Assembly: GCA_014360065.1 (NCBI GenBank)
Contig: JACIYF010000003.1
Span: 1,567-65,566, forward strand
Source: Clostridia bacterium
Lineage (GTDB): Bacteria; Bacillota; DSM-521; Neomoorellales; JACIYF01
DNA: 64,000 nucleotides
Reading direction: 5' to 3'
The position numbers and the translations under genes are program-made. Under the pieces are notes generated by a model. That model did not search any database and was not told the origin of the DNA. It saw only the letters and a list, made by a program, of their open reading frames with translations. This document shows positions 13,173-35,914 of this stretch, in pieces. Positions within the stretch are counted from its first letter, which is position 1; each line of letters starts with the position of its first letter.

Positions 13173-13199
13173 ATTTGGCTAACTTCGGATCGGCTCGCG

Positions 13200-19986: not shown

Positions 19987-20089
19987 TGTATGCCAGACCT
20001 AGGTAAAGGGTTAGCGAATCGCCCAAACCCCTGTGGCAACAGCCGCAGTTTTGGGGTTGTGGGCAAGTTACACTCAACTCTAATTGGGC

Positions 20090-21043: not shown

Positions 21044-21190
21044 TGCTCGGTTACGGCGCCTGGCCGCATGGAACAGCACGGAGAGAATGAGATGACCCTC
21101 CTCTAGCATTCCATGAGGAGGGCCGGTGCTATTCGCCGTCGAAAGACCCTAGCGCAATTCGACAAAGTGGATTAACGGGGCTTGGGATTC

Positions 21191-21242
21191 TGTGGATAAC
21201 CTTGTTCATAAGTGCCCTTTTCGGGCCTCTGGCTGTGGATAA
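21191..21242. promoter_or_regulatory. Two perfect DnaA boxes (TGTGGATAA = complement of TTATCCACA) in direct orientation
   Basis: Exact 9-mers sit at 21191-21199 and 21234-21242, with a 2-mismatch copy (AGTGGATTA) at about 21165. All are in the intergenic region upstream of the SBP gene. Confidence 0.45.
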
Positions 21243-21303
21243 GTTTGCGGATATGCGAATGTCGGCGGAAATGGAAATTTCTGTAGCGATCGCTGTCGAA
21301 ATT

Positions 21304-22386
21304 TTATTCCCATTTCCAAAACCGAACCGCTACCACTAAGGTGGCCACCGCCCAGGCCACCAGAACCAAAAGGTCGGTGGGCAAAGAGTACAGAGGCGTA
21401 GCTTCCACCATGACCTGGCGCAGGGCATCGCCCAGGTAGGTGAGGGGCATGGCCTTTAGCACTGGCTTTAGGAACGCCGGCATGAATTCTACTGGGAAAA
21501 AGATGCCGGAGAGAAACATCATGGGGAACTGCACCACGTTGGCCAGCCCCACCGCGCTTTCCTCAGTCTTGCACAGCGACACCAACAGATATCCCAGGCT
21601 TACAAAGGTAGCCGCGCCCAGCACTACGATCCCGAGGACCTTGAGCCAACTGCCAATGACGGTAACATGGAAGACCAGATAACCAATAACCACTATGGTT
21701 AGAGTCTGCACTAAAGCCATGAGGAACCGTACACTGATCTCCGCACCTAGGAGCGTCCACCGAGGCAGCGGGGTTGCTCCCAGGCTCTTTAAGATTTTCT
21801 GTTCCCGCAAGCTGACTAGGTGTAAGGCCCCAAAAATACCTAGCTGCATAAGAGCCATAGCCAGGATGCCCGGGAGGAGGTAATCAATGGTCCTTAGTTC
21901 CTTGGGTTGGACTGCTTGGGACTGAACCCTAAAGATCTGGGGGCGATGGGTGATGCCTCTCTCGATGCCATCCAAAACTTGCGCGATTACTGGCACGAGT
22001 ACTTGCCCCGAAGCCTGCTGGCTGGCATCGTAATATACGGGTATCTGCACCGGCTGGCCGGAGGTCACCGCCGGCCCCACTTCCTCGGGTATAACGATTA
22101 CCGCCCGCCGGTCCCCCTTGGTCAAAGCATTGAGCTCCTGGTCCCTGGTTCCTTGGTGAATCTTAAACGAAGCAATTGACCCCAGGGCGCGGGATATCTG
22201 CTCAGCAACCGGGTCTTGGGACTCAGCCACCAACCCAACGTCAAAGCTGCTGGATCCCTCGTTGGCAAAAACCGCTCCGAAGATGAGAATGAATATAACC
22301 GGGAACACCAGGAACCAAAAGATAGCCATCCGGTCCCGGACCAATTCTTTGACATTAGCCACAAACAGCTCGGCGAAAGTCTTCAT
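21304..22386 (-). CDS. ABC-2-type exporter permease
   Basis: 360 aa with an N-terminal TM segment, a large extracytoplasmic loop and 5 C-terminal TM segments. It overlaps the upstream ATPase gene by 4 nt. Confidence 0.8.
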   Translation of the reverse strand: MKTFAELFVANVKELVRDRMAIFWFLVFPVIFILIFGAVFANEGSSSFDVGLVAESQDPVAEQISRALGSIASFKIHQGTRDQELNALTKGDRRAVIVIPEEVGPAVTSGQPVQIPVYYDASQQASGQVLVPVIAQVLDGIERGITHRPQIFRVQSQAVQPKELRTIDYLLPGILAMALMQLGIFGALHLVSLREQKILKSLGATPLPRWTLLGAEISVRFLMALVQTLTIVVIGYLVFHVTVIGSWLKVLGIVVLGAATFVSLGYLLVSLCKTEESAVGLANVVQFPMMFLSGIFFPVEFMPAFLKPVLKAMPLTYLGDALRQVMVEATPLYSLPTDLLVLVAWAVATLVVAVRFWKWE

Positions 22387-23477: not shown

Positions 23478-23852
23478 ATGTTGCTGCCGCTTACGGCCAA
23501 AAATGTGGTTTTGAAGCTGCTCGGGTTCGGATCAGTTTTGGCACTGGGAAAGAGTTTGCGCCCCACCCTCTACCCGTCGGCCCCACCCATCCTGGCTACT
23601 GCCACAGTCCTGACCTTGGTAGGAGCGGTAGCTGACCTAGTGATCGTGCCTAAATTGGGCAACCTGCCTTCACTCAACCTTGGCTTTCCCGGCATGACCA
23701 GCATAATCTGGGGAACGGCCAAGCTGTGGCCCAGAACCAACGTTTCCTTGGCCCAGGCAGCTACCTTAGCCCTTATGGCAGCCCCGATTGAGTACATCTT
23801 ACATAGGATGGTTTTACAAAATATAGGCCGGCAAAGCGCCGGCCACCGCTAG
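23478..23852 (+). CDS. Small membrane protein (YndM/DUF2512-like)
   Basis: 124 aa with about 4 TM segments. AAAGGGGTGAG lies 8 nt before the ATG. The family call is from memory only. Confidence 0.4.
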   Translation: MLLPLTAKNVVLKLLGFGSVLALGKSLRPTLYPSAPPILATATVLTLVGAVADLVIVPKLGNLPSLNLGFPGMTSIIWGTAKLWPRTNVSLAQAATLALMAAPIEYILHRMVLQNIGRQSAGHR

Positions 23853-24259
23853 CTGGATCTACCTTCTCTTAGAAAGGCAGCCAGAGCTTTATCCGCCCCC
23901 ATGATATGCTGGGTTAACCAGTCCACCACCTTACGGTTGATAACCACCACCAACCTTAGGGTAGCCCCTTCACTCTCAAACTGCTGCTTGAGATTGCCGA
24001 TGTCCTGGATAAACTGATCGTGTAACTGCTTGTGGGTTGGGTACTCAGGGTAATGATGGTCTTGTTGAAGTTTCTCCTCAGCGCGGAAATGGGTTTTTAC
24101 ATAGTCTTCCAGGAAGTTGAGCATTTCTTCCACTACTTCTTTGCCTTTACCTTGGTTACATGCCTCAAGCAGCTGGTTGATCCGCTTGATCAATTCCTGG
24201 TGCTGCTGGTCAATTAGGTCTACACCGGTGGCAAGGCTGGCGCTCCATTGCATGGCCAA
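23849..24259 (-). CDS. Bacteriohemerythrin
   Basis: W..SLATGV.LIDQQHQELI, H.....FL..Y...HF..EE and H...H are the hemerythrin His/Glu/Asp iron ligand pattern. Length is 136 aa. Confidence 0.85.
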   Translation of the reverse strand: MAMQWSASLATGVDLIDQQHQELIKRINQLLEACNQGKGKEVVEEMLNFLEDYVKTHFRAEEKLQQDHHYPEYPTHKQLHDQFIQDIGNLKQQFESEGATLRLVVVINRKVVDWLTQHIMGADKALAAFLREGRSS

Positions 24260-24276: not shown

Positions 24277-25653
24277 TTAGTTGCCATAGAGATTCGGCGT
24301 TGGCTCTAGTTTTCCTTCACTTTGCTTTAGGAGCTCGATGGGGTGGACGGCAGATATGCCGGTGTGGCCCCAAAGCTGAACTTGGCACATCCCGCACTCG
24401 GTGGCTACCAGACGGGCATTGCTGGCAGCCAAGGATTCAACCAAGGAGCGGGCGATGCGCCGGCTAGCCGGATAGCGTTCTTGCTTCAGGGCATAGGTCC
24501 CCGCCGCCCCACAGCAGCTATCCGCTAGCGGTACAATATTGAGGCCGACCACCCGGCGCAGTAGCTCAAGTCCAGGAGCTCCAATGCCCTGGGCGGCCAG
24601 GTGGCAAGGCAGGTGATAGGCCACCGGCAACCCCGGCGGCCGGGGCGACCGCTGACCGCCGGTTACGGAATTCTCCAAGACAAACTGGCAGGCGTCGACC
24701 ACCGACCGGCTTAGGCTAAAAGCAGCAGGTCCCGGAACCAGGCTAGGATAAACCTCCTTTAGCACTAGGGCACAGCTGGGGCATAAAGCCAAGACCGGCA
24801 GGTCCGGATGCAATGCCCTGCCCAGAGATGGAGACGGTAGCAGAGTCAGCAGCTGCTCAAAGTGGCGCAGGTTACTTCCGGCCCACCGGGTCGCTTGCCG
24901 GCTGTCTCCGTTGGCCAGAGCCGGGAGGCCACAGCAGGCTGAATCCAACAGATAAAGCTGGCATCCCCATCCACTAAGAAGTCTTTTTAAGGCCTGGAAG
25001 GCTTGAGGTCGGCAGTAGCGATAGAAGCAACCCAGAAAGACCGCCACTACTTGCGGTAATGTTGGGGTGAAGCTACTTAGCTGGCCGGGCCGGTCAAGGT
25101 GGCCAGGTTCAGGTCCGGCCGAAGCCGGTTGAGCGGCAGCTACCCTAACCCACCCAAAGGTAGTTTCCGGGCGGGAGCTAAACCGGGGTAAAGGCTGGTC
25201 GGGGCTTATTCCTAGCCCCCAAGCCAAGGCCTTCCGGACCAGGTGGCGCCGCCCTAGCCAGTTAACGACCCTGGCCAGCAGCGCCGCCCATCGCCCCCAC
25301 GATGACCCCCGAGCCAAAAACCACTTGCGCAAAGATAGCATAAGACTAGGGAGCTTAGCTTTAGGCCTCCAGGACTGGATCAGATCCGCTACTGGTACTC
25401 CAGCCGGGCAAGCGATTTGGCAGCGCCGGCAACCGTTGCAACCCGCCAACGCCGAGTAGGGCGGCACCTGATAGGAAGGATGTCGTCGCCACCAGGCCAC
25501 CAGCGACTTGGGACCAGGAAAGGTGGGGTCTATACCATAAACCGGGCAAGCATCTAGGCAGATGGCGCAGCGCAGGCATGCCTCAAGAGACCAAGAAGCC
25601 CGAGCTAGCCCATGTTCTTCGCCCCAGCTTGGAACTTGCTGGCCTGTTGCCAT
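24277..25653 (-). CDS. glpC: Anaerobic glycerol-3-phosphate dehydrogenase subunit C (Fe-S/CCG-domain protein)
   Basis: There are two ferredoxin-type motifs (CLRCAICLDACP, CNGCRRCQIACP) and two CCG-type Cys motifs (CCGLPA, CCGAAG). ATG 25653 follows GGTAGGTGGG. Confidence 0.75.
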   Translation of the reverse strand: MATGQQVPSWGEEHGLARASWSLEACLRCAICLDACPVYGIDPTFPGPKSLVAWWRRHPSYQVPPYSALAGCNGCRRCQIACPAGVPVADLIQSWRPKAKLPSLMLSLRKWFLARGSSWGRWAALLARVVNWLGRRHLVRKALAWGLGISPDQPLPRFSSRPETTFGWVRVAAAQPASAGPEPGHLDRPGQLSSFTPTLPQVVAVFLGCFYRYCRPQAFQALKRLLSGWGCQLYLLDSACCGLPALANGDSRQATRWAGSNLRHFEQLLTLLPSPSLGRALHPDLPVLALCPSCALVLKEVYPSLVPGPAAFSLSRSVVDACQFVLENSVTGGQRSPRPPGLPVAYHLPCHLAAQGIGAPGLELLRRVVGLNIVPLADSCCGAAGTYALKQERYPASRRIARSLVESLAASNARLVATECGMCQVQLWGHTGISAVHPIELLKQSEGKLEPTPNLYGN

Positions 25654-25660
25654 GACGCCC

Positions 25661-25694
25661 ACCTACCTACCTACTTACTTACTTACCTAGTAAG
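25661..25694. repeat. Tetranucleotide microsatellite (CTAC)3(TTAC)3 in the glpAB-glpC spacer
   Basis: The sequence is acCTACCTACCTACTTACTTACTTACctagtaag. On the coding (minus) strand it reads GTAA x3 / GTAG x3 and runs into the glpC SD-like GGTAGGTGG. Confidence 0.8.
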
Positions 25695-25706
25695 CTTTGG
25701 CCCCTT

Positions 25707-28565
25707 TTATCTTTTCCCAGCGGCGGCTTGCAGGCCGGCCCAGTAGCCAGTTATGACCGCCACCGCATTTCCCCACCACCGCTGGGTGAGATCGATTCCC
25801 GTACCCACGGCCGCCCTGCCCGCCGGCCAGAAATTAAAGTTTATCCAACTTGGGTTCTCTTGAGCTAAAACTGTATCCCGAAGGCCGCCGGCCCGGTTAA
25901 CCTCCGCACCTCCGCCTACCAGCCCGCCAGTTGCCAGGATTAAGCTCCGGCCTTCGGCCCCATATGGGGCACCAATGCCAGTGACTGCCGCTTGCCACCT
26001 GTTCCCTACCCTTTGAGCTACCACCGGAAAGCCAAGCACCAGGGTTATTCCCAGTTCCCGGGCACGTTGCCGCAAGGCCTGAGCCACCCGCAAACCCGAC
26101 ACCGACGGCGGCAGCGTAGGTATTTCCACCACTCGGCAGCCCAGCAACGCTTCCAGCTGCCCTATGATCGAGCTACTCTTTCCCAAACCCAGGACCGCCG
26201 GGAAACCGAGGGCGTCTCCTCGACGGGCGACTGACCCCTTGCTCATGAGGGCCTGGCGGATCTGGCGGCCTAACCTTAACAAGCAGGAAGGGTTCTCGGA
26301 AAACTCATTCTCGAAATACCGGGCCAGTTGGACGGTCGACCAACCCTGGACCCCAACGCCTAAGTCTTTTAGTTTTAAGCGCACCAGGTCCAATCGGCCA
26401 TCCCAGTCCGGCTGAGCCATCAACGCTGGGTAAAAGCCTTGCAACTCTTCCCAAGTGATGATCGGAAACCGGGTAGGATTGCCTAGCTCCGGTGGCACCA
26501 ATAAGCTCTCCGGAGCCCCCCATACCGGTACCCTATTGCCCCAGGCGTCAATCATCCCATGGGGAGTTCCTTCCTGGCCGACCCAATAAGGCAAGCCTGC
26601 CGCCAAAAGCTCTTCCCGCAAAAACGCCAAGGCTTCCAGGACTTGCTCCGGTGTTAATCTCAGCAGGTGAGCTAGCTCTTCCAGATTGGGGCGGCTGCCC
26701 GGCGGCCCAGCCGTAATGGCACCCGAGGAAAGTTCCAGCAAACCCCACCCTTGGGCCAAAACGGCCACCCGTACGCCCCGCCGGGCAGCCGCCAGGGCTG
26801 CCACCAGCCCGGCCAACCCGGCCCCTATTACCAAGACATCAAATCGCTTCCAGTAGTTGGGCTTGAAGGTTTCCCTTGCAGCGGCCGGCTCCGCCGGCTT
26901 CGCTGGGCCAGGAAGCGCAGACTCCCAAGCCGACCTGGTCTCCAGCAGGCCTTTGGCCCCCAACCTCAACAGCTCCGCCTGGAGCAACTGAGTCCCCCGC
27001 GCGACCGGCTGCATGCCCCGAAGCCGCTCTTCCCAGAACTCCCTCAGCTGCAGCCGCCCCTCCAGGGGCGAAAGCAGTCCCGCTGCCACCAGCTCTCCTG
27101 CCGCCCGGTACCCGCACCAAAAGCCCTGACAACTGCCCATGCCTAGGCGGGTCAAGTGCCGGATTTTCACTAGACTAACAGCTTTGCCCTGCCCGCTTCC
27201 CTGGGATGGATGGCCAGCAGCGCTAAGGAGCATTTCTTTGGAAACCCCTTCGCATTCGCATATCAGGCCTAGCTCCCGGGCTGGCTCCAGCTTTGCCCCT
27301 GTCAGCTTAGCCTCAAGCCCATAAGACTTTCCCATTATAACCTTTCTTGCTTCCTTCGCGCCGGAGCCGAACATTATTAAGTCAGCAGCCTTCTCCGCCA
27401 TTAGCCGGGCAGTTATCAGCTTCCCACCTACTACCGAATAGAATCCCCATAGCCCTTCTTGTTGCCCGTGATCGATGATATGAAAATCCCGGCTTATGGC
27501 CCGCCCCGATTTAGCGTTGCCTTTACAGCTGCTATTACCGCTGCCGCCAGCCCCGCCGCCAACCGGCTGCCCAGCACCTGCCTCCGCTGCCGGAGCACAT
27601 AGGGGCCTAACCCCCGAAAAGGCTCTGATCAGGCGTTCCCGATCGAGCGCTGGTATCAGCTCCCGTCCCAGCTGAAGCAGCTGCTCAATCTCGGTGGACG
27701 TAGCCTCAAAAGCACTGGGCTGCTCCACCGCTAAAGCGGTGGTGCCGAGAATCGATGCCGTACGGTGGGGCAACAATATATCTCCGTCCCCTGGGGGTCG
27801 CAGTCGATTGAGAGCCCGCTGCACTAATCGGCGGCCAAATACCAAAAGGGTGCCTTTGGAAAGAGCCAGGGGTACCTTACAATTAGCTAGCTGGGCTACC
27901 TGGGCCGCCCAAGCGCCGGCCGCATTGATTATGGCCCAACCGGGCAAATACTGTTTTTCCCCGGTCCTGGTGTTGGTTGCCCATACCCCCGCCGCTCGAC
28001 CCTCAACCACCTCTATGGCTTCCACTCGGGTGTGGGGATAGTACTCAGCCCCCCGGGCCAGGGCTTCGGCTACCACCTCCCGCACCCACAAAAAGGGATC
28101 GATGGCCCCGTCCGGCACCTGATAAACAGCCGTCACTTCTGGACTTAAGAGCGGTTCCTGTTCCCGAGCTTCAGCTAAAGCGATGGAGCGGACTGGAATA
28201 CCAAGGTGGCGACAGCCTTCCAGCCACTCCTGGACATAATCAGGGTCATCTTGGGCCAGCGACACAAACCAGCCCCCAGTGGGATCAACGGCAAAGCTGG
28301 CCAGGCGGCGCAAAATTTGATTCTCCCGCCAGCATTCCTGAGCAGCAGCCGGATCGGTGACAGCATAGCGGGCTCCGCTGTGGAGAAGCCCATGGCATCG
28401 GCCGGTGGCCCCAAAGGCCAATTCTTCCTGCTCCAAAAGGCTAGCGGCAACCCCTCGCCGGGACAATTCCCAGAGCAAAAGCGATCCGGTGGCCCCACCC
28501 CCGATGATTATTACTCGTCGGTCCTGGCTTTCAATCACTACCTGCTCACCCTTTGATGCTCCCAT
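25707..28565 (-). CDS. glpA: Fused anaerobic glycerol-3-phosphate dehydrogenase subunits A and B (GlpA-GlpB), 952 aa
   Basis: The N-terminus has FAD motif VIIIGGGATGS..., HSGARY and a BFD-like CECEGVS. A second FAD motif FDVLVIGAGLAGLVAALAAARRG near aa 575 starts a GlpB-like half. The start could instead be GTG 28538 (AAGGGTGAG upstream). Confidence 0.8.
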   Translation of the reverse strand: MGASKGEQVVIESQDRRVIIIGGGATGSLLLWELSRRGVAASLLEQEELAFGATGRCHGLLHSGARYAVTDPAAAQECWRENQILRRLASFAVDPTGGWFVSLAQDDPDYVQEWLEGCRHLGIPVRSIALAEAREQEPLLSPEVTAVYQVPDGAIDPFLWVREVVAEALARGAEYYPHTRVEAIEVVEGRAAGVWATNTRTGEKQYLPGWAIINAAGAWAAQVAQLANCKVPLALSKGTLLVFGRRLVQRALNRLRPPGDGDILLPHRTASILGTTALAVEQPSAFEATSTEIEQLLQLGRELIPALDRERLIRAFSGVRPLCAPAAEAGAGQPVGGGAGGSGNSSCKGNAKSGRAISRDFHIIDHGQQEGLWGFYSVVGGKLITARLMAEKAADLIMFGSGAKEARKVIMGKSYGLEAKLTGAKLEPARELGLICECEGVSKEMLLSAAGHPSQGSGQGKAVSLVKIRHLTRLGMGSCQGFWCGYRAAGELVAAGLLSPLEGRLQLREFWEERLRGMQPVARGTQLLQAELLRLGAKGLLETRSAWESALPGPAKPAEPAAARETFKPNYWKRFDVLVIGAGLAGLVAALAAARRGVRVAVLAQGWGLLELSSGAITAGPPGSRPNLEELAHLLRLTPEQVLEALAFLREELLAAGLPYWVGQEGTPHGMIDAWGNRVPVWGAPESLLVPPELGNPTRFPIITWEELQGFYPALMAQPDWDGRLDLVRLKLKDLGVGVQGWSTVQLARYFENEFSENPSCLLRLGRQIRQALMSKGSVARRGDALGFPAVLGLGKSSSIIGQLEALLGCRVVEIPTLPPSVSGLRVAQALRQRARELGITLVLGFPVVAQRVGNRWQAAVTGIGAPYGAEGRSLILATGGLVGGGAEVNRAGGLRDTVLAQENPSWINFNFWPAGRAAVGTGIDLTQRWWGNAVAVITGYWAGLQAAAGKR

Positions 28566-28583
28566 TCACCTTTAGTGCCTGCC

Positions 28584-28636
28584 AAAAAGAAAAGCCCTAC
28601 TGGCCTGCGCCCCTACAGCGCCGGCTCGTAGGACTT
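28584..28636 (-). terminator. Strong intrinsic terminator in the glpP-glpA spacer (candidate GlpP antitermination target)
   Basis: The minus-strand RNA is AAGUCCUAC-GA-GCCGGCGC-UGUAGGG-GCGCAGGC-CA-GUAGGGCUU followed by UUCUUUUU. It ends 18 nt before the glpA ATG. Confidence 0.6.
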
Positions 28637-28666
28637 CTCGCCTTCTCCAGCCCTAACTATCAACTT

Positions 28667-28691
28667 TATAGATACAAGATATAGATACAAG
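28667..28691. repeat. Perfect 12-bp direct repeat TATAGATACAAG x2 (1-nt spacer) in an AT-rich island of the glpP-glpA spacer
   Basis: The copies at 28667-28678 and 28680-28691 are identical. Function is unknown (operator or promoter element?). Confidence 0.7.
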
Positions 28692-28741
28692 AATAGACAT
28701 ACGCCACCCGGGCCGAGAATCCTGCCTGCAACCCCACCCCA

Positions 28742-29353
28742 TTAGTCGCCAGTATAATTCCAAACTGCCCGGTAGCTAGTACTGACCGCCAAAGCTCCAG
28801 CTGCCAGCGCATCCCTGGCTTCTTGAGGCTTTCGGATCAGTCCTCCGGTAATGATGGGAAGCTTAAGCGACTGGCATATTTGGGCAATAATCCGGGGCGG
28901 GAGCACCCCCGGCAATATCTCCACCGCGTCCGGGTGGCAGGACCGGGCCATGCGCACCCCAGTCCGAATAGCATCAGTATCTACCAGGAATAGTCGGATT
29001 ATGCTGAGCAGGTTTTCCGACTTTCCTGCCTCGACTAAATTAGCCCGGGTGGTAATGAGGCCGTCAGCACCCAAGCGGGCTAAGTACCTGACTCCTGCCG
29101 CATCCTTACCCAGGCCCTCAATTAGATCCAAGTGCACCAGGATGAACTTACGCCGCCGGTGGACGCTCTCAATGGCTGCCGGTAGCGACATTAAGTCGCC
29201 GCTAAGTAGGAAGATGGTGCGCAGGCGAGGATGGCTTACCACCTCCGGTAGGTCTTCTAGCCGCCGCACCGCAGCGATGAGTGGAAAGGGACCTACCAAT
29301 TCTTCTAGGCTTGGTTTCTGGGTTGACCTTGACGGCCAGCTCTCCGTGGTCAT
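28742..29353 (-). CDS. glpP: Glycerol uptake operon antiterminator GlpP
   Basis: IAAVR..EDL, IFLL.GDL, VHLDLIEGLGKD..G..YL, GLITTR and PIITGGLIR match the GlpP (G3P_antiterm) family. I prefer ATG 29353 (GGGGG upstream) over 29431. Confidence 0.8.
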   Translation of the reverse strand: MTTESWPSRSTQKPSLEELVGPFPLIAAVRRLEDLPEVVSHPRLRTIFLLSGDLMSLPAAIESVHRRRKFILVHLDLIEGLGKDAAGVRYLARLGADGLITTRANLVEAGKSENLLSIIRLFLVDTDAIRTGVRMARSCHPDAVEILPGVLPPRIIAQICQSLKLPIITGGLIRKPQEARDALAAGALAVSTSYRAVWNYTGD

Positions 29354-29408
29354 GTTTGCCCCCTGCCTACCCGCCCTAACCAGGCTAGCATTCCAGGCTA
29401 GCATCAGC

Positions 29409-29437
29409 TTGTCAAGCCCGGCCAGGACCATTATATC
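29409..29437 (+). promoter_or_regulatory. Candidate sigma-A promoter driving a long plus-strand leader toward the glycyl-radical enzyme gene
   Basis: TTGTCA (29409-14) is followed by 17 nt and then TATATC (29432-37). A second -10-like TATAAT lies at 29664-69 without a good -35. Both are speculative. Confidence 0.3.
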
Positions 29438-29948
29438 CTGAATATTGCCGGCCCGCCACTACCCTTCCACCCTCGCTGCCAAACGGCCAGGCTACCTTGG
29501 TGACAGCAAGGGTGGAGGCGGGCCAGCGGAGACTCCCAGCCAACGAGGGTGCCAGGAAGCATAGTTCGCCAGCGCCCAAACTTCGTACTTGAGATGCTAG
29601 GCGAAAGAACCGATAAAAAACTTTTCTTATTTTCTAGCAGGAATGCGGGCACATTTGTTTAATTATAATAGCGTGGAGTTTTCCGACCTTTAGCATCGAT
29701 AACTTGACCAAGGCCGGGCTGGGAGAAGGCTGAGACAGCCCTTACTAAGCGCCAACCCAAAACCTAGGGCGCTCTGGTAAGGGCTTACTTAATTCCTGGG
29801 TTGCTATTCTAAGGCAGTGCCTTATGGGAGTAGCTGCACAAGCAGGCATGAAAAGGCACGTAGGGGATGCTGGGGCGCTGGTCCGGAAGCGACATTAAGC
29901 CGAGCGGCTAAGCCACCTTAGCGACGGCGAGGGTGGAGGCAGGTCAGA

Positions 29949-30044
29949 CCCAGCACTCAACTCACGAATCCAGGCATGAGGTCCGCCTTGGGCAGGCAGC
30001 AGGTTAATTAGAGTGCTGTGGTCTGCCGGCAGTTGAGTGCTGGG
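29949..30044 (+). promoter_or_regulatory. Leader element A: 14-bp perfect long-range stem CCCAGCACTCAACT / AGTTGAGTGCTGGG enclosing 68 nt, upstream of the GRE gene
   Basis: The arms are at 29949-29962 and 30031-30044. An inner hairpin is GGCAGGCAGCA...TGCTGTGGTCTGCC. A partial second 3' copy (AGAGTGCTGTGG) lies at 30010-30021. The 5' arm and flank are near-identical to element B. Confidence 0.6.
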
Positions 30045-30188
30045 GGAGCCGGCCACGGACATGGAAGTCCGATTGGCCGGGTAGCCTGCCGGAACCTGAG
30101 CTGGAGCTTTAGGTGGCTCCGCGCAGGATTACGGAGCGGAGGAACAGCGGGCCAGCTGGAAATATGCTTTTGGGAGGAGGCAAAGAAA

Positions 30189-32576
30189 ATGGAGGAAGGC
30201 TGTAAAGTAAAGCTTTGGTCGCCATCGGAAAATCTTTCTCCCCGGGTCAAGAAGCTGCGCGATGAATACTTTAGCTACCCCCACCGAGAATTTAAGAATA
30301 CGGTTCTAGCTTACACTACTGGAGCTCCTTGGGACCGGGTATATCGCAACTACGAAGACTATGTAGTTCCAGAGATGGTCCCCTTCATGAGCGGGATAGC
30401 GGACTCCCTCTTGGCTCTAGCCCAACCGGTAGATCTGCCGGCCAATTTCTTCAAAGAGCCCCTGATCGTGCGCCGGGCTTTATTTACCCAGGCGGTGCTT
30501 CGCCAGATCCCGGTGGATATTTTGGAGGGAGAGCTAATTGTCGGCGGCCGCTTCAATACCGCCATGTCCACCTGCCTCAACCAGGAAGAAACCCAAGCCT
30601 TTGAAGCCGTCTACCAAGAATACTGCGCCAAGACCGAACGCCTGATCAACCTCGGCATCTCCAACTGCGGAGCAGTGGGCTGCCACATCATCCAGGACTT
30701 CAAGCGGCTTTTGTCCATTGGCTTTAAGGGAGTTGAAGCCGAAGCTAGACGCTTATTGCAGGAGACCAGGGACCCTGAGAAAAAAGCTTTCTATCAAGCC
30801 ATCATCATCTCCTGTGAAGCAGTCAAGGAATTTACTGCCCGCTATGCCGCCGAGGCCCGCCGGCAGGCAGAGGCCATCGGCAAAGCCGATCCAGTCCGTC
30901 AAAAGGAGCTTCAGACCATTGCCGCCATCTGCGACCGGGTGCCCTATGAGCCACCCCAGACTTTTTATGAGGCGGTTCAGGCCTGTTGGTTCATCCACAT
31001 GATTGACATGATTGCCGAGGGTTACCACGGAGCTGGCTTGTCGTATGGCCGCTTTGACCAATACCTTTACCCGTTTTATGCGCGGGACCTAGCCGAGGGT
31101 CGAATTACCCGCGACCAAGCTAAAGAAATCCTACAATGCTTCTTCATCAAGCACAACTATGCCTATGATCGCCAGCCCGCCCACGGCAAGCAGGGCATCA
31201 ACTCTGGCTATGGCCAGCTAATAACCTTAGGCGGTATGGGACCCGGCGGGGTAGACCTCACCAACGACCTCACCTACTTGATGCTGGAAGTAATCATGGA
31301 AATGAACTTACTAGAGCCCAAGTGCACCTTCCGAATACACCAGGGAACTCCTGATCTCTTGTTTAAGCGCATCCTCAAGGCCATCCACCAAGCCCAGGGA
31401 TCACCCTTCCTGCTCAACTTTGATGAGCCCAGCATCCTGGGCTTGGAGAAGGAAGGGATTTCGCCCGAAGAAGCGGTTGACTATGGGGTAGTAGGCTGCA
31501 TCGAGAACACGTCTGCTGGCAACGACCTCTCCGGCACCGTTGATGTCAACATTAACATTGCCAAAGCGGTAGAGCTGGTTCTCAACAATGGCCGCTGCCT
31601 GCTCACCGGCGAACAGATCGGCCCCGCCACTGGGGATCCTGCTAGCTTCGCTAGCTTTGATCAGTTTTTCGCCGCGTACAAGGCTCAGCTTCAGGCCATC
31701 ATCCAGCAAACCTTAGAGGTAGCCTCCACCTGGGACGGCTTACGAGCTACTTACGTTCCCGTCCCCTATCTTTCCGCCACCATTGGCGGTTGTCTAGAAA
31801 AAGGCCGCGACGTCCGGGCCGGAGGAGCCAAATACAACTTCATTACCGTGGAAGGCGTAGGCATCGCTACCGCAGCCGACTCGGTAGCGGCAGTGAAGAA
31901 ACTGGTATATGACGAAAAACGGCTGACTATGGAGGAGCTAGTAGAAGCGCTCAAGGCTAACTTCGAAGGCAAAGAAGCGCTACGGCAGCTGCTTTTGAAT
32001 CGCGCTCCCAAGATGGGCAATGATGACCCCTATGTTGATGATATCGCTCGGGAAATATCTCGTTTCTGGGGACATGAGGTACAAAAGCATGTCTCCCCCA
32101 TTACCGGCCGTCGCTACATGGGCGGTTACCTCTCCTGGAATTATTTTGTGGGCATGGGAGCAACCACCGCTGCCACCCCCGATGGCCGTAAAAACGGTGA
32201 GCCCCTGTCCAACGCTGTAGCCCCCGCCCAGGGCCGGGACGTAAACGGACCCACCGCCGCCATCAAGTCGGTTACCCACTTGGGATTTGATGCTCAACCG
32301 CGCGGAGTCTCCTATACCATTACTTTCAACCCAGCCATGCTACAAACCGAAGAGCAGTTGGCCAAGTTGGGAGCGCTGCTGAAAGCCTACGGTCAGCTGG
32401 GCGGAACCTCCATCCAGCTCAATCTGATCGACCGGGAAACCCTGATTGACGCCCAGCAGAATCCCGAAAACTACCAAAACCTCTTGGTTCGGGTCACCGG
32501 TTACAATGCTTATTTCGTTACCCTGGGGCGAGCCATGCAGGATGAGATTATTGCCCGCACCGCCCATGCGGTTTAG
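30189..32576 (+). CDS. Glycyl-radical enzyme of the PFL-like/1,2-eliminase type, substrate unknown (795 aa)
   Basis: GGGAGGAGG lies 8 nt before ATG 30189. Motifs include the Gly-radical motif LLVRVTGYNAYFVTL, the Cys loop VVGCIENTSAGN, GRFDQYLYPFY, and TPDGRKNGEPLSNAVAPAQGRDVNGPTA. Confidence 0.9.
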   Translation: MEEGCKVKLWSPSENLSPRVKKLRDEYFSYPHREFKNTVLAYTTGAPWDRVYRNYEDYVVPEMVPFMSGIADSLLALAQPVDLPANFFKEPLIVRRALFTQAVLRQIPVDILEGELIVGGRFNTAMSTCLNQEETQAFEAVYQEYCAKTERLINLGISNCGAVGCHIIQDFKRLLSIGFKGVEAEARRLLQETRDPEKKAFYQAIIISCEAVKEFTARYAAEARRQAEAIGKADPVRQKELQTIAAICDRVPYEPPQTFYEAVQACWFIHMIDMIAEGYHGAGLSYGRFDQYLYPFYARDLAEGRITRDQAKEILQCFFIKHNYAYDRQPAHGKQGINSGYGQLITLGGMGPGGVDLTNDLTYLMLEVIMEMNLLEPKCTFRIHQGTPDLLFKRILKAIHQAQGSPFLLNFDEPSILGLEKEGISPEEAVDYGVVGCIENTSAGNDLSGTVDVNINIAKAVELVLNNGRCLLTGEQIGPATGDPASFASFDQFFAAYKAQLQAIIQQTLEVASTWDGLRATYVPVPYLSATIGGCLEKGRDVRAGGAKYNFITVEGVGIATAADSVAAVKKLVYDEKRLTMEELVEALKANFEGKEALRQLLLNRAPKMGNDDPYVDDIAREISRFWGHEVQKHVSPITGRRYMGGYLSWNYFVGMGATTAATPDGRKNGEPLSNAVAPAQGRDVNGPTAAIKSVTHLGFDAQPRGVSYTITFNPAMLQTEEQLAKLGALLKAYGQLGGTSIQLNLIDRETLIDAQQNPENYQNLLVRVTGYNAYFVTLGRAMQDEIIARTAHAV

Positions 32577-32678
32577 GTGCCTACGAAAGAAGTATCAAAA
32601 TGCGGAGATGCTGGCGTAAGGCGACTTTGGGCGAGTCGCGCGAGCCGTTGGCGGGGCCGGGCCCGGAGGTGGGGCCGA

Positions 32679-32806
32679 CCCAGCACTCAACTTACGAACC
32701 TGGTAATGGGGTTACCCTGCCTAGAAAGCAAGTGTCTATGGGCCATGGTATCTTTTTGTAGCTGAGTGCTGGGGAGGCCGGTCGGGTTAGTCAGTTGAGT
32801 GCTGGG
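32679..32806 (+). promoter_or_regulatory. Leader element B between GRE and activase: same 5' arm with two alternative 3' partners
   Basis: CCCAGCACTCAACT (32679-92) can pair with AGCTGAGTGCTGGGG (32760-74, 1 mismatch, 67-nt loop) or with AGTTGAGTGCTGGG (32793-806, perfect). The 16-nt GACCCAGCACTCAACT is identical to element A. Confidence 0.6.
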
Positions 32807-32923
32807 CGCCGAAGGGTGAGGAGAAGCCATACGGATCGCTGGCGAAGCATCTTGCGCCGGCGCCAGCGCCCCGGCATGGGGAACGTTTCGGAAGAACTGC
32901 AGTTTAAGCGGGAGGGGAAAAGG

Positions 32924-33931
32924 TTGGCAGACATAGAAACCACCGCCCAGCTGGTGGCAGATCCGGGAACAGCAGAAACAGATATGGATAGAGACGAATT
33001 GGCGGTTTCGGGGCTGGTGACCAATATACAGAAGTATTCCACCGAAGATGGTCCCGGCATCCGCACCACCGTCTTTCTCAAGGGCTGCCCCCTGCGCTGC
33101 CTTTGGTGCCACAATCCCGAAGGCCAGGAAACTAGGCCGGAATTAATCTATTACCAGGTCCGCTGTATTGGCTGCGGGGCTTGCGCTGAAGTTTGCCCCC
33201 AAAAGGCTATTACCCCCGACCCGGCCACCGGCTTTAGCCCTGACCGCCGCCGCTGCACCGGCTGTGGGACCTGTGCCGACGCTTGCCCGGCCAAGGCGAG
33301 AAAGCTAATGGGCAGCCGCCTCACCGTAGCCGCATTGTTGGCCGAGGTGGAAAAGGACGTTATCTTCTATGTCCAGTCGGGCGGTGGGATCACCCTTTCC
33401 GGCGGAGAACCCACCATGCAACCTGACTTCTGCCAAGCTTTGCTCTTTTCGGCCCGAAAGCGGGGCATCCCTACCGCTTTAGATACTTGTGGCTGGGTTA
33501 GTTGGAGCACCCTCAAAGAGATGCTCCCTGCGGTTGACCTAGTCCTGTTTGATCTCAAGCAGATAGATCCCGAACTGCACCGCAAACAGGTAGGAGCGAG
33601 CTTGGAACCCATTCTAGCCAATCTTCAGCGCCTGGACGCCGCCGGCAAAGCCATCTACATTCGTACCCCAGTGGTACCCGGCTATACCGACCAAGCGGAA
33701 AACATTGCCGCCATCGCCCGGTTTTTGAGGCCGCTTGAGCAAGTGCAGGTTTGGGATCTGCTTCCCTTTCATCAGCTAGGGGAAGCCAAATACCGACAGC
33801 TGGGAAAGAAATACGCCCTGGCCAACCTTAAGCCGCCAACCACCGAAACCATGGAGAGGCTGGCCGCCATCGCCCGGTCAGAGCTAGGCCAGTCGGCCGG
33901 GCGCATCCAAGTCAATGTCGGAGTCAGCTGA
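32924..33931 (+). CDS. Glycyl-radical enzyme activating enzyme (radical SAM, with two auxiliary 4Fe-4S motifs)
   Basis: IQKYSTEDGPGIRTTVFLKGCPLRCLWCHNPE is the CX3CX2C motif. Ferredoxin-like motifs are CIGCGACAEVCP and CTGCGTCADACP. I prefer TTG 32924 (GGGAGGGG 6 nt upstream); the ATG alternatives at 32876 and 32984 lack an RBS. Confidence 0.85.
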   Translation: MADIETTAQLVADPGTAETDMDRDELAVSGLVTNIQKYSTEDGPGIRTTVFLKGCPLRCLWCHNPEGQETRPELIYYQVRCIGCGACAEVCPQKAITPDPATGFSPDRRRCTGCGTCADACPAKARKLMGSRLTVAALLAEVEKDVIFYVQSGGGITLSGGEPTMQPDFCQALLFSARKRGIPTALDTCGWVSWSTLKEMLPAVDLVLFDLKQIDPELHRKQVGASLEPILANLQRLDAAGKAIYIRTPVVPGYTDQAENIAAIARFLRPLEQVQVWDLLPFHQLGEAKYRQLGKKYALANLKPPTTETMERLAAIARSELGQSAGRIQVNVGVS

Positions 33932-33986
33932 CTAGAAGAAACAGCGCCTCAGCTAGAAATATATGTTTTGCGGAGGAGGGTTTATC

Positions 33987-34394
33987 ATGGCTAAGATGCC
34001 AGACGTAGTAATGCAAAAGTTTCAGGATCTGAAGAATCCCAAATTCATGGCTACCGTGGATGCCGAGGGCAACCCCAACGTGGTTCCGGTACTTTCGGTC
34101 ACCGCCATTGACAACCAGTACCTTATCTTTGCTGACATCATGATCAATAAGACCAAGAAGAACCTCCTTGATAACGGTAAGGTGGCTGTAGCTGTCATTA
34201 CCGATAAGGGCGAAGCCTACCAGGTGAAAGGTAAGTTTTTAGGGTTCCAAACCTCGGGGATGTTGTTTGACGCCGTAGCTTCGGCGCCGGAGCTGAAGTA
34301 CAATGCCTACTTTGGCCCCAATGGCGTCGGCGTCATCGAGGTGACCGAGGTTTACACCGCTACCCTGCCCCTGCCTGGAGAAAGAATAGCCTAA
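33987..34394 (+). CDS. Pyridoxamine-5'-phosphate-oxidase-like FMN-binding split-barrel protein
   Basis: GGAGGAGGG lies 6 nt before ATG 33987. ...MATVDAEGNPNVVPV... and GKVAVAV...YQVKG follow the typical PNPOx-like pattern. Length is 135 aa. Confidence 0.6.
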   Translation: MAKMPDVVMQKFQDLKNPKFMATVDAEGNPNVVPVLSVTAIDNQYLIFADIMINKTKKNLLDNGKVAVAVITDKGEAYQVKGKFLGFQTSGMLFDAVASAPELKYNAYFGPNGVGVIEVTEVYTATLPLPGERIA

Positions 34395-34408
34395 GGAGGT
34401 AGGATAGC

Positions 34409-35914
34409 TTGCCTGAGTTCATCTTGGCCCTGGACCAGGGCACTACTAGTTCCCGGGCCATAATTTTTGACGCCTTTGGCCAACCCATTGCCCAAGCCCA
34501 GCAGGAGTTCCCCCAGCATTTTCCTCAGCCGGGTTGGGTAGAGCAGGACCCCAATGATATTTGGGAGAGCCAGCTGGCCTGCGCCCGAGCCGCCCTCGAA
34601 AAGGCGAGGCTGACAGCCAAAGATATTGCCGCCATCGGCATAACCAACCAGCGGGAGACTACCATTCTTTGGGACCGCAAGACCGGACAACCAGTGCACA
34701 ATGCCATCGTCTGGCAGTGCCGCCGAACCGCTCCTCTGTGCCATGAGCTCAAGTCCCGGGGCCTAGAGCCAATAGTGCAAGAGCGCACCGGGCTGGTCAT
34801 CGATGCTTACTTCTCCGGTACCAAAATCCAGTGGCTGCTCCAGACCTACCCGGAGATAAGAAAGCGGGCCGAGAAGGGTGAAATCGCCTTTGGCACGGTT
34901 GACTCTTGGTTAGTATATAAGCTGACCGGCGGACGCTTGCACCTTACCGACTATACCAATGCTTCCCGCACCCTCCTGTTCAACATCCATGACTTGAAAT
35001 GGGATGAGCTGCTCTTGGAAGAACTAGGCGTCCCCGCTGAAATCTTGCCGGAGGTTCGGCTCTCTTCCCAGCTATACGGGGAAACTGACCCCCATTGGCT
35101 GGGAGGACCCATTCCTATCGGCGGAATTGCCGGCGACCAACAAGCAGCCTTATTTGGACAGGGTTGCTTTAATTCCGGACAAGCCAAGAACACCTACGGC
35201 ACCGGATGTTTCCTTTTAATGAATACCGGAAGCCAGGCAGTCAACTCCCGGCACGGGCTGATTACCACCGTTGCCTGGGGTATCCCCAACGGCCAGGCTC
35301 GTCCCCGCATCGTTTACGCCCTGGAAGGCAGCATATTTGTAGCTGGAGCCGCCATCCAATGGCTCCGGGATAGCCTGGGCCTGTTGGAAACCGCTGCTGC
35401 TAGCGAGACCTTGGCAGCCTCGGTGCCGGATAACGGCGGCGTCTATTTGGTGCCGGCCTTCACCGGCTTGGGTGCCCCTTACTGGGACATGGAGGCCCGA
35501 GGCACTATCGTGGGCCTGACCCGGGGAAGCACTCGGGCCCACCTGGCTCGGGCCGCTTTGGAAGCCATTGCTTATCAAACCCGGGATGTTCTCGAAGCCA
35601 TGGTTGCCGACGCCGGCACTCCTTTAAACATTCTTAAGGCCGATGGTGGGGCTACTGCCAACAACTTTCTCATGCAATTTCAGGCCGATATCCTGGGAGT
35701 GCCGGTACAAAGAGCCGCCATCGGTGAGACTACAGCTTTGGGCGCAGCTTACTTGGCCGGCCTAGCTTCAGGCTTGTGGACCCTCTCTACCTTGCCGGGA
35801 ACCCGAGCCGGAAGCGAAGGTTACTTTGTCCCGGCAATGGATGCCATTAGCCGCGAGGCGCTTTACCAGCGCTGGAAACAAGCGGTAGCCCGCTCCCGCC
35901 AATGGGCTAGCTGA
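34409..35914 (+). CDS. glpK: Glycerol kinase
   Basis: [27 protein letters not shown] and [10 protein letters not shown] are present. It uses a TTG start after GGAGGT. Confidence 0.95.

Follow-up and report, generated by a model that had tools for sequence, protein, structure and literature searches.

The 64,000-nucleotide stretch analysed here (the window) carries two divergent gene sets. The minus strand bears glpC, a glpA-glpB fusion and glpP; the plus strand bears genes for a glycyl radical enzyme (GRE), its activase and a PNPOx-like protein, followed by glpK. Every gene named in the original prediction was confirmed in position and strand. The Fe-S/CCG subunit of an anaerobic glycerol-3-phosphate (G3P) dehydrogenase is encoded by glpC (24277..25662; NF008369, 282 bits against a cut-off of 278; CCG and 4Fe-4S dicluster domains by Pfam) and the flavoprotein subunits by the 952-residue glpA-glpB fusion (25707..28565), in which GlpA models cover residues 12-328 (TIGR03377 at 1.1e-147 over residues 18-326) and GlpB models residues 573-901. 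L001, the locus of a 91%-identical relative, carries the identical fusion architecture. The third minus-strand gene, glpP (28742..29431), encodes a G3P-responsive antiterminator (Pfam G3P_antiterm PF04309, 189 bits, 4.8e-56, spanning residues 52-224) whose true start is probably internal to the ORF, near 29353. Directly 3′ of glpC, also on the minus strand, lies a bacteriohemerythrin gene (23849..24259; NCBIfam NF033749, 130 bits against a cut-off of 84) that keeps this adjacency in L001 and is possibly an O2-binding or sensing companion, peripheral to the GRE/glp system. On the plus strand the glycerol kinase gene glpK (34409..35914; TIGR01311, 734 bits against 590) begins 14 nt past the stop codon of the PNPOx-like gene, and the order activase, PNPOx-like gene, glpK is the same in seven assemblies of the source organism. 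Pfam searches covering nearly every non-overlapped ORF of 150 aa or longer in the window found no Fe-ADH, dhaT, aldehyde dehydrogenase, Dha kinase, microcompartment shell protein or MIP/GlpF, which bears out the absences noted in the original prediction and leaves no aldehyde-handling gene anywhere in the window.

The GRE (795 aa; 30189..32576, plus strand; Pfam PFL-like 8e-153, Gly_radical 1.5e-28) occupies an ORF of 30018-32576 and starts at the ATG at 30189, with the ribosome binding site GGGAGGAGG upstream. This start is supported by DNA homology to the genome of a 91%-identical homologue of equal length (P0001), which begins at 30174. The key residues are Gly771, Cys437-x-Glu439 and His166, all invariant in 162 clade members; the last corresponds to His164 in glycerol dehydratase, which is proposed to act as the acid for the departing hydroxyl (PMC13450708). 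Judged by its sequence, the enzyme is of the CxE (1,2-eliminase) type and a member of an uncharacterised clade.

Its best PDB match is the glycerol dehydratase 1r8w (444 bits for the single sequence and 595 for the clade profile), and it shares the fold, glycyl radical motif and Cys-x-Glu loop of Clostridium butyricum DhaB1/DhaB2 (1r8w/1r9d) and of propanediol dehydratase (5i2a). Equivalents of His164, Glu435, Cys433, Tyr640 and Gly763 are all found (His166 and Tyr647 being the counterparts of His164 and Tyr640), and both systems have an adjacent activase with a ferredoxin-like insert and a genomic link to glycerol catabolism. The PDB match and the retained residues would suit an ordinary DhaB1/DhaB2 orthologue whose 1,3-propanediol dehydrogenase is encoded elsewhere, yet this reading is highly improbable. 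The GRE is 39% identical to DhaB1 over 620 aligned residues, CutC, HypD, 9rco and IseG score nearly level with glycerol dehydratase, TIGR01774 gives 565 bits against a cut-off of 678, and no curated NCBIfam family cut-off is reached. The GHSISP and GWHD motifs common to glycerol dehydratase, propanediol dehydratase and 9rco are absent, GHS and WHD being replaced in 162/162 clade members; instead the GRE has G-A/P-G with a 2-residue insertion and SGTVD, and Gly in place of Y339. Unlike the DhaB1/DhaB2 systems, which pair with DhaD and DhaK, this locus pairs its GRE with GlpK and GlpABC, has an additional conserved split-barrel partner, and has neither a microcompartment nor, within the 64 kb, dhaT. 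The motif test (GHS, WHD) largely refutes a DhaB1-type glycerol dehydratase, and the predicted separation from bona fide B12-independent glycerol dehydratases stands.

The pocket changes relative to glycerol dehydratase (H281 to Ala/Pro, S282 to Gly, Y339 to Gly, D447 to Val, and the 2-residue insertion) affect the half that holds the far end of glycerol, so that glycerol would have to bind differently. At the positions where the sulfonate lyases IslA, IseG and HpsG anchor the anionic group, the GRE has Gly161 for R187, Gly/Cys165 for Q191 and an invariant Gly646 for R676, and the active site is unlike that of every characterised GRE. The invariant pocket includes aromatic (W650, Y279, Y324, Y326) and polar residues (N323, N440, N651, Q343, S285, S448, S649, T441, T450). 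Candidate active-site positions do not vary across the clade, whose members come from over 580 species genomes of Chloroflexota, Asgard archaea, Actinomycetota, Desulfobacterota and Bacillota, and a pocket kept constant in bacteria and archaea alike implies one ubiquitous substrate.

The gene order GRE, activase, split-barrel protein is conserved in the clade. The activase (32925..33931, plus strand), a radical-SAM enzyme with a two-ferredoxin-cluster insert (TIGR02494, 364 bits against 174), likely starts at the TTG at 32925, to judge from the ribosome binding site GGGAGGGG and L001 homology that begins at 32908. The partner (33987..34394, plus strand; 135 aa) is a PNPOx/HupZ/FMN-binding-protein-like split β-barrel (Pfam PNPOx_N, 37.8 bits against 28.1) and an exact match to P0121; its AF2 model (pLDDT 85.9) matched HupZ (2e-10), Swol_0183 and the D. 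vulgaris FMN-binding protein in Foldseek. It is found at 120/165 clade loci, and its gene abuts or overlaps that of the activase in several lineages. The conserved third gene of the clade is that of the PNPOx-like protein, not glpK, a point missed in the original prediction. We know of no characterised GRE with such a partner, nor of one in dha operons. Like HPAD gamma, BSS beta/gamma and MASS beta/gamma/delta, it is a small protein encoded beside the GRE and activase. Solubility, radical control or turnover depends on those accessory subunits, all of which are HiPIP-like or rubredoxin-like Fe-S/Fe proteins (PMC13450708), whereas the present partner has a PNPOx/HupZ-type split-barrel fold and lacks Cys clusters.

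The original prediction paired the GRE with glpK, and this link does recur, although roughly 93% of clade loci have no glp gene nearby. A glpK lies beside the clade GRE at 11/166 loci and in 5/37 GRE lineages, for which a binomial model gives P ∼5e-6 by lineage if a 3-Mb genome is taken to have a single glpK and neighbours are counted up to 10 kb to either side. The linked kinases exceed the curated GlpK equivalog cut-off (719–741 bits against 590) and are often accompanied by glpA, glpB or glpC. The five lineages, 48–63% identical to each other in their GREs, are the studied window with L001; L087 (glpK-GRE-activase-partner, with a GldA glycerol dehydrogenase nearby); L021, L032, L033 and L095-097 (glpA<glpK<>GRE), together with L031 (GRE ∼80% identical), where glpK and a full G3P dehydrogenase set lie downstream on the opposite strand; L105; and L154, a tight operon GRE-activase-partner-glpA-glpBC-glpK. 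Since glpK stands beside the triad in five divergent lineages and in differing orders, the synteny is neither unique nor accidental. The GRE thus lies outside the glycerol dehydratases, the window is free of aldehyde-handling genes and the glpK synteny recurs, so the two findings that would speak against the original prediction were not what we observed, and the undescribed GRE function it proposed is likely.

It is nevertheless conceivable, if somewhat doubtful, that the substrate is unrelated to glycerol (another small diol, amino alcohol or polyol) and that the glp adjacency reflects shared anaerobic regulation or gene shuffling. The glp-free majority of loci, an active site that differs from all characterised GREs, and acyl-CoA dehydrogenase as the commonest neighbour beyond the triad would agree with this. 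Against it, a bona fide glpK, often with G3P dehydrogenase genes, lies beside or inside the operon in five independent lineages at the low chance probability given above, and no other catabolic gene set recurs with equal specificity.

The triad sits within glycerol-utilisation genes here and in at least four unrelated lineages, and it is therefore probably the entry to an undescribed oxygen-free pathway for glycerol or one of its close derivatives. Our preferred, though tentative, reading is that the GRE represents a new radical 1,2-eliminase whose substrate is glycerol itself, working in parallel with GlpK and GlpABC. The plus-strand unit would form a three-part radical system of CxE GRE, radical-SAM activase and small split-barrel protein. 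The activase would install the radical on Gly771, from where it would move to Cys437, which would take hydrogen from the substrate carbinol carbon; Glu439 would deprotonate the hydroxyl at that carbon and His166 protonate the neighbouring leaving group, yielding a C3 carbonyl compound, 3-hydroxypropanal or, if C2-H is abstracted, hydroxyacetone. The partner, probably flavin-binding, would most likely be a dedicated low-potential electron donor to the activase, as its fold matches small FMN-binding electron-carrier-like proteins. Such a system would give anaerobic glycerol catabolism a branch that needs neither ATP nor B12, expressed from one locus with the route from GlpK through G3P and GlpAB-C to DHAP. 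Other recurring clade neighbours, an aldehyde:ferredoxin oxidoreductase, acyl-CoA ligase, enoyl-CoA hydratase and acyl-CoA dehydrogenase, fit a path from 3-hydroxypropanal through 3-hydroxypropionate and acryloyl-CoA to propionyl-CoA. In some Dehalococcoidia the acyl-CoA dehydrogenase lies between GRE and activase, and its best NCBIfam match is acryloyl-CoA reductase, at 256 bits far under the cut-off of 640. Counting against glycerol are the glp-free loci and the lack of an aldehyde- or ketone-reducing gene with the GRE in the window or in the L154 operon. GRE clades of such divergence also usually differ in substrate.

The original prediction had instead proposed a glycerol-containing or phosphorylated three-carbon substrate, or glycerol release, and is only partly supported: neither a phosphorylated substrate nor glycerol release gains positive sequence support, and free glycerol in a non-DhaB1 active site explains all neighbours at least as well. 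A GRE that competes with GlpAB-C for sn-glycerol-3-phosphate (or glycerol-1-phosphate) from the adjacent GlpK is unlikely. By analogy it might dehydrate the free 1,2-diol end, as HpfG does with dihydroxypropanesulfonate (DHPS), or eliminate phosphate after C2-H abstraction, as HpsG expels its distal group, to give hydroxyacetone and phosphate. HpfG (DHPS dehydratase) and HpsG (DHPS sulfolyase) are CxE eliminases on a C3 1,2-diol with a distal substituent, and show that C1-H abstraction on this scaffold leads to dehydration and C2-H abstraction to expulsion of the distal group with formation of hydroxyacetone. Every glp-linked arrangement includes the kinase, which makes it the most constant of the glp neighbours, and glpF was found at none of these loci. 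A reactive end that retains Cys, Glu and His, joined to a remodelled, enlarged distal half, is also what one would expect if the substrate were HO-CH2-CH(OH)-CH2-X, where X is not OH. PflD/YbiW, CxE anhydro-hexitol-6-phosphate isomerases whose substrate comes from a neighbouring phosphorylating system, offer a kinase-then-GRE precedent, but they are less similar (343–349 bits), catalyse sugar-phosphate ring opening and have no split-barrel partner. The HpfG/HpsG equivalogs likewise reach 459–497 bits against a cut-off of 1000, and their Arg/Gln/Arg anchor is missing, with no conserved basic residue at the IslA/IseG/HpsG positions. No downstream pathway is known for either product, 3-phosphooxypropanal or acetol (the latter made at the expense of one ATP), and the oxidoreductase, ligase, hydratase and dehydrogenase neighbours would go unexplained.

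Release of glycerol or G3P for GlpK and GlpAB-C by a lyase acting on a glyceryl ether, glycosylglycerol or glycerophosphodiester is less probable still. The order GRE-activase-partner-glpK without glpF suits glycerol made inside the cell, and a polyol or sugar moiety could be well accommodated by a pocket with many Trp, Tyr, Asn, Gln, Ser and Thr residues. A glycerolipid-derived substrate would agree both with the lipid-type neighbours (acyl-CoA dehydrogenase, enoyl-CoA hydratase, CoA ligase and aldehyde oxidoreductase) and with the glp genes. By our own mechanistic reasoning, however, CxE chemistry on the obvious candidates would yield hydroxyacetone or 3-hydroxypropanal, not glycerol; glycosides and phosphodiesters are already handled by hydrolases; the triad has no recurrent neighbour that is a lipase, glycosidase, phosphodiesterase or matching transporter; and a literature search found no link between GREs and such substrates.

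The original prediction also placed the GRE in a GlpP regulon; such control of the GRE operon is hypothetical and here comes down to adjacency, as glpP lies beside the GRE in this genome only and no GlpP-type RNA target is identifiable in the GRE leader. As in the B. subtilis glpP-glpFK-glpD regulon, glpP adjoins glpK and G3P dehydrogenase genes, and a terminator-like hairpin lies ahead of the latter. Unlike that regulon, the dehydrogenase is of the anaerobic GlpAB-C type, glpF is absent with its place 5′ of glpK taken by GRE, activase and partner, and no GlpP RNA target was found. Between glpP and glpAB, the minus-strand spacer (28592..28692) contains a perfect 13-nt tandem repeat (28667-28692) and, at 28606-28592, the hairpin, which resembles a terminator but is weak; glpAB-glpC may be controlled from this spacer. 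Even with the threshold relaxed to E ≤ 1, Rfam gave no match to the 757-bp divergent region and GRE leader (29432..30188, plus strand). Positions 29600-29680 of this region are AT-rich, the part downstream of them is strongly structured (fold z-score –4.67), and a 49-nt direct repeat occupies 29478-29526 and 29899-29947. A hairpin element in the same region (29925-30055) has a second copy (32655..32810, plus strand) in the 348-nt GRE-activase spacer, with a 5′ arm at 32679-32692 and alternative 3′ arms at 32760-32773 and 32793-32806, which is an insertion relative to L001. In five samples, the assembly of the source organism is broken at 32834 or 32851-32852.

The genes of the locus lie exactly where the original prediction had placed them. 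On the minus strand these are glpC (24277-25662; NF008369, 282 bits vs a cut-off of 278), a 952-aa glpA-glpB fusion recognized by GlpA and GlpB models (25707-28565) and glpP (28742-29431; Pfam G3P_antiterm PF04309, 4.8e-56, 189 bits), the true start of which is probably downstream of the 5′ end of its ORF. The best NCBIfam match of the GlpA part of the fusion reaches 493 bits vs a cut-off of 553, and those of its GlpB part reach 97-126 bits vs equivalog cut-offs of 174-354. Divergent from this group is a plus-strand unit headed by the glycyl radical enzyme (GRE), whose ORF opens at 30018 and whose start is the ATG at 30189 behind the ribosome-binding site GGGAGGAGG. The resulting protein of 795 aa (30189-32576) has the same length as its 91% identical homologue P0001, and DNA homology to the locus of the latter begins at 30174. 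The GRE is followed by its radical-SAM activase (probable TTG start at 32925; TIGR02494, 364 bits vs 174), by a 135-aa PNPOx-like split-barrel protein, hereafter the partner (33987-34394; PF01243, 37.8 bits vs 28.1), identical in sequence to a protein from NCBI 'MAG: Clostridia bacterium', and by glpK (34409-35914; TIGR01311, 734 bits vs 590), which starts 14 nt past the partner stop codon. A bacteriohemerythrin gene (23849-24259, minus strand) sits directly 3′ of glpC and keeps this position in L001, the locus of a 91% relative; its product may accompany the oxygen-sensitive genes here by binding oxygen.

The encoded enzyme combines a PFL-like barrel (PF02901, 8e-153) with a glycine-radical domain (PF01228, 1.5e-28), and its glycyl motif reads RVTG771YNAYF, Gly771 being invariant in 162 relatives. 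Its single catalytic cysteine is found in VVGC437-I-E439-NT, and both Cys and Glu are invariant in the 162 sequences; such a CxE motif is the mark of the 1,2-eliminase and isomerase classes of GREs (2026 review, PMC13450708). None of the curated NCBIfam cut-offs is reached by the GRE, which scores 564.7 bits against TIGR01774 (PFL2/glycerol dehydratase subfamily, cut-off 678.2), 497 and 459 against the GRE C-S lyase/HpfG equivalogs NF048011 and NF048009 (cut-off 1000 for both; 497 is the HpsG score), 496 against HypD (NF043068, cut-off 1100) and 441 against CutC (TIGR04394, cut-off 1050). The best solved relative is 1r8w, the B12-independent glycerol dehydratase (GD) of C. butyricum (444 bits, 39% identity over 620 residues), at a score barely above those of 9rco, CutC, HypD and IseG. 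A profile built from the clade, the large uncharacterised group to which the GRE belongs, gives 595 bits for glycerol dehydratase, 360 for MasD and 322 for TutD. An identity as X-succinate synthase (Ass/Bss/Mas) was rejected, as MasD and TutD score far under glycerol dehydratase and a small Fe-S subunit gene does not recur at the loci.

Pocket residues were assigned by sequence alignment to solved structures. In the alignment to 1r8w the GD active-site residues His164, Cys433, Glu435, Tyr640 and Gly763 are retained; the first of these, the general acid for the leaving hydroxyl, corresponds to His166 of the GRE and is invariant in the clade. Other GD residues are altered (H281 to Ala, S282 to Gly, Y339 to Gly and D447 to Val), together with a two-residue insertion. 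Profile alignments reveal GHSISP-x-RFDQY and GCVEPQ...GWHD to be common to GD, the GRE propanediol dehydratase and 9rco, and the clade counterparts of these motifs are E-S/G-Y-P/H-G-A/P-G-LSYGR and GC(L/I)ENT...SGTVD. The exchanges of G-H281-S282-ISP for G-A/P-G-LS-Y and of G-W-H-D447 for S-G-T-V451-D are found in the window GRE and in all 162 members. Likewise, the Arg/Gln/Arg sulfonate anchor of IslA/IseG/HpsG is absent from the GRE in the IseG alignment, where R187, Q191 and R676 are replaced by Gly161, Gly/Cys165 and Gly646, respectively. Since the motif, anchor and curated-score comparisons all fail to place it, the GRE falls outside all characterised families, the DhaB1-type dehydratases included, and is, judged by its sequence, a CxE eliminase. 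In particular, the reading that it is a plain DhaB1 orthologue is rejected by the motif comparison, and a dhaT or microcompartment/aldehyde dehydrogenase partner is lacking in the 64-kb window, where Pfam detects no Fe-alcohol dehydrogenase, aldehyde dehydrogenase, Dha kinase, MIP/GlpF or microcompartment shell gene among the remaining sizeable ORFs; we therefore regard this reading as highly improbable.

The candidate pocket positions (H166, E277, Y279, G283, S285, N323, Y324, Y326, D327, G342, Q343, C437, E439, N440, T441, D446, S448, T450, V451, D452 and G646-N651) are all invariant or nearly so in the 162 members, which are at least 45% identical, and this argues for one substrate across bacteria and archaea. 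From these alignments we infer that the substrate shares the reactive HO-C-C-X end of glycerol, and that the distal half of the pocket has been rebuilt.

glpK lies beside the GRE-activase-partner triad in 11 of 166 loci, and most loci are without a nearby glp gene. These 11 loci represent five GRE lineages, mutually 48-63% identical and differing in gene order. The window and L001 share the arrangement glpC-glpAB(-glpP) divergent from GRE-activase(-partner-glpK). In L087 the order is glpK-GRE-activase-partner, all on a single strand, and a GldA glycerol dehydrogenase and another FGGY kinase are encoded close by. In the Dehalococcoidia-type loci (L021, L032, L033 and L095-097) glpK followed by glpA is divergent from the triad. 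L031, binned as Euryarchaeota and counted with this lineage because its GRE is ∼80% identical to theirs, has the triad followed by an opposite-strand glpK and a full set of glycerol-3-phosphate (G3P) dehydrogenase genes. In L105 glpK is upstream of the GRE, and L154 is a tight, partly overlapping GRE-activase-partner-glpA-glpBC-glpK operon. The neighbouring kinases of L154, L105, L097 and L087 score 719-741 bits vs the GlpK equivalog cut-off of 590. Assuming one glpK per 3-Mb genome and a 10-kb window on either side, the chance probability of glpK adjacency in 5 of 37 lineages is ∼5e-6, the independence of the lineages being judged by GRE identity and gene order rather than by a tree. We discarded a count confined to loci flanked by long sequence on either side, since paralogous GREs in some of them and short contigs distorted it. 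As the linkage recurs in five divergent lineages, the synteny is not unique to the window genome, the outcome that had been named as speaking against the original prediction. We consider it unlikely, while worth keeping in view, that the substrate is unrelated to glycerol. One of the Dehalococcoidia-type loci, L097, encodes two more, distantly related GRE paralogues within 10 kb (1-2119, minus strand, and 19114-21456, plus strand), both without a PNPOx-like partner.

The remaining recurrent neighbours were tallied by independent lineages. An acyl-CoA dehydrogenase is near the triad in six lineages, and aldehyde:ferredoxin oxidoreductase, enoyl-CoA hydratase and short-chain dehydrogenase in four each; an acyl-CoA ligase, a ThDP enzyme and an old-yellow-enzyme homologue are also recurrent, as counted by loci only. 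In several Dehalococcoidia the acyl-CoA dehydrogenase is inserted between GRE and activase (L011, 11932-13167; also L019, L036 and L049). Its best NCBIfam match is the acryloyl-CoA reductase AcrC at 256 bits vs a cut-off of 640, and with a score so far under the threshold this is only a hint. Near the inserted gene, a ThDP enzyme and an aldehyde:ferredoxin oxidoreductase are also encoded. The ABC transporter and S-layer-like neighbours of Thorarchaeota belong to a single lineage and were set aside as inherited synteny rather than functional evidence, and some neighbour families that appeared conserved, such as clusters 7 and 8, were spurious, consisting of antisense ORFs in GC-rich loci.

The reading that covers most neighbours is that glycerol itself is the substrate, and we put it forward tentatively. 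Glycerol would be dehydrated to 3-hydroxypropanal or, alternatively, to hydroxyacetone, with C2-H abstraction as in HpsG, and the GRE reaction would form a branch parallel to that of glycerol kinase (GlpK) and the anaerobic G3P dehydrogenase (GlpAB-C). 3-Hydroxypropanal could then be converted via 3-hydroxypropionate and acryloyl-CoA to propionyl-CoA, a route that would suit the aldehyde oxidoreductase, CoA ligase, enoyl-CoA hydratase and acyl-CoA dehydrogenase neighbours and that, by our own stoichiometric reasoning, would make the conversion of glycerol to propionate a redox-neutral fermentation. The GldA in L087 would fit either glycerol oxidation or acetol reduction. G3P could also be the substrate, given that no neighbour is as constant as the kinase and that the distal pocket is remodelled, but the pocket offers no basic anchor and the products would have no known fate, and we judge this rather improbable. 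Less probable still is a lyase acting on a glycerol conjugate. The GRE shares its mechanism class with the GRE dehydratases, and the logic of its locus is similar to that of a dha regulon, here with GlpK and GlpABC in place of DhaD and DhaK.

The three genes form a recurrent unit. Among 165 non-redundant loci the activase is 3′ of the GRE in 138, with a partner homologue next in line in 120; contigs are truncated at many of the other loci. In several lineages the activase and partner genes abut or overlap. The partner is a single-domain protein of ∼135-150 aa in the sub-clade of the window and mostly a tandem duplication of ∼260 aa elsewhere. Its AF2 model (pLDDT 85.9) matches HupZ, the Syntrophomonas FMN-binding protein Swol_0183 and the small FMN-binding protein of D. 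vulgaris with a Foldseek probability of 1.0. A motif NKTKKNL..NGKV is conserved in the partner, and we take it to resemble the cofactor-phosphate helix of the split-barrel superfamily. Given the tight coupling with the activase and the FMN-carrier-like fold of the model, we favour a role of the partner as a dedicated electron donor to the activase; less probably, it is a structural subunit or a product reductase. Known GREs are without an accessory of this kind, as their accessory subunits are all HiPIP- or rubredoxin-like (PMC13450708). Taken as a whole, the triad might constitute a new glycyl-radical system, with an undescribed reaction on a glycerol-derived substrate (an acetol-forming glycerol dehydration, or a G3P dehydration/phosphate elimination), with a small flavoprotein as a new GRE accessory (electron donor to the activase, or subunit) and with an active site invariant in hundreds of uncultured lineages including Asgard archaea, a composite proposal that we hold with less than even confidence.

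More than 1,600 relatives of the GRE came up in a protein search, and the closest of them (55-68% identical) are from Abyssubacteria, Dehalococcoidia, Anaerolineae, Deltaproteobacteria and Freyarchaeota. Pattern scans place the clade in at least 587 species genomes and at least 549 metagenome contigs, with hosts including Thor-, Frey-, Jord- and Promethearchaeota, Geothermincolales and Bacillota. It spans Chloroflexota, Asgard archaea, Geothermincolales, Desulfobacterota and Bacillota of sediments and the subsurface. GREs carry out key conversions in anaerobic metabolism. The June 2026 review contains no characterised GRE of this clade; whole GRE clades, including all archaeal PFL-like ones, lack an assigned function there (PMC13450708). 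Searches of the literature on GRE sequence-similarity networks, Thorarchaeota, Dehalococcoidia and Asgard archaea found no paper on the clade, those on GREs with glycerol kinase and G3P nothing relevant, and those on GREs with ether lipids or glycerophospho compounds none. 'Alkyl/benzylsuccinate synthases' have been published for Asgard archaea (PMC8163825), and these 'Ass/Bss' genes may belong to this clade. The locus offers a very large clade a concrete hypothesis, in which the substrate is glycerol or closely derived from it and the unit to consider is a defined set of three proteins. If confirmed, glycerol carbon would have a route independent of B12 in anoxic habitats that are limited in energy, and GREs would have a new type of accessory protein. 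The labels 'pyruvate formate-lyase' and 'alkylsuccinate synthase' in genome papers on uncultured lineages might be corrected. For biotechnology, too, a radical enzyme that converts glycerol in a different pocket is of interest.

Among the surveyed clade loci, the antiterminator gene glpP accompanies a GRE only in the window genome. The glpP-GRE intergenic region of 757 bp is strongly structured (z -4.67). Our scan of the GRE leader found no U-tract terminator and no convincing sigma-70 promoter, nor a terminator after glpK, and the leader and spacers match no known RNA family, either at Rfam gathering thresholds across the whole window or at E ≤ 1 on 28500-33000. A hairpin element of ∼130 nt occurs twice in the GRE operon, in the leader (29925-30055) and in the 348-nt GRE-activase spacer (32655-32810), the two copies being 75% identical with perfect 14-nt arms (CCCAGCACTCAACT/AGTTGAGTGCTGGG) and the spacer copy offering two alternatives for the 3′ arm. 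At least this copy is an insertion relative to L001, which lacks it and where the GRE stop is ∼19 nt from the activase; five independent assemblies of short reads from the same organism, each from a different sample, end immediately 3′ of it. In L001 the place of the long leader upstream of the GRE is taken by McrBC genes, and the region is unrelated to that of the window. The hairpin element is more probably a repeat than a riboswitch-like control element of ancestral origin. GlpP may plausibly control the GRE operon, and the case for this is positional only, since glpP is a companion in one genome, neither a U-tract terminator nor an Rfam match is found and the hairpin element is likely a repeat.

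The McrBC-type restriction system of L001 (MrcB_N/AAA_5 and DUF2357/PDDEXK_7) occupies 5572-9914, where the window has glpP and the leader. The glpP-GRE intergenic region also contains a 49-nt direct repeat (29478-29526 and 29899-29947), 78% identical and with a hairpin in each copy, of which the window holds only these two copies (0.02 expected by chance). Between glpP and glpAB, the spacer combines a weak hairpin resembling a terminator with a 13-nt tandem repeat, the latter a perfect doubling of TATAGATACAAGA at 28667-28692, and a further perfect tandem repeat, CCAGGCTAGCAT in two copies (29380-29404), is found at the 5′ end of the glpP ORF.

Elsewhere in the window, a PocR-sensor histidine kinase and an AraC-type response regulator are encoded on the minus strand within 52292-56005, divergent from a second PNPOx_N protein of 183 aa. 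Regulators of this type are found beside GRE diol-dehydratase loci. No dehydratase adjoins the pair at 52292-56005, and it was dismissed as a flag for a diol dehydratase or dhaT, its neighbours being the PNPOx_N protein, a 590-aa unknown protein, a DUF2267 protein and a Ni-insertion fragment. Rfam identifies a TPP riboswitch (7382-7490, minus strand) upstream of an AIR-synthase-like/ThiN fusion and a full-length match to the cspA thermoregulator (84.6 bits, 13145-13492, minus strand), which probably indicates a cold-shock gene with its leader. Finally, two adjacent DUF6385 proteins (18120-19986, minus strand) are encoded beside two very large glycosyltransferase-TPR fusions of 671 and 835 aa (13559-18081, minus strand).
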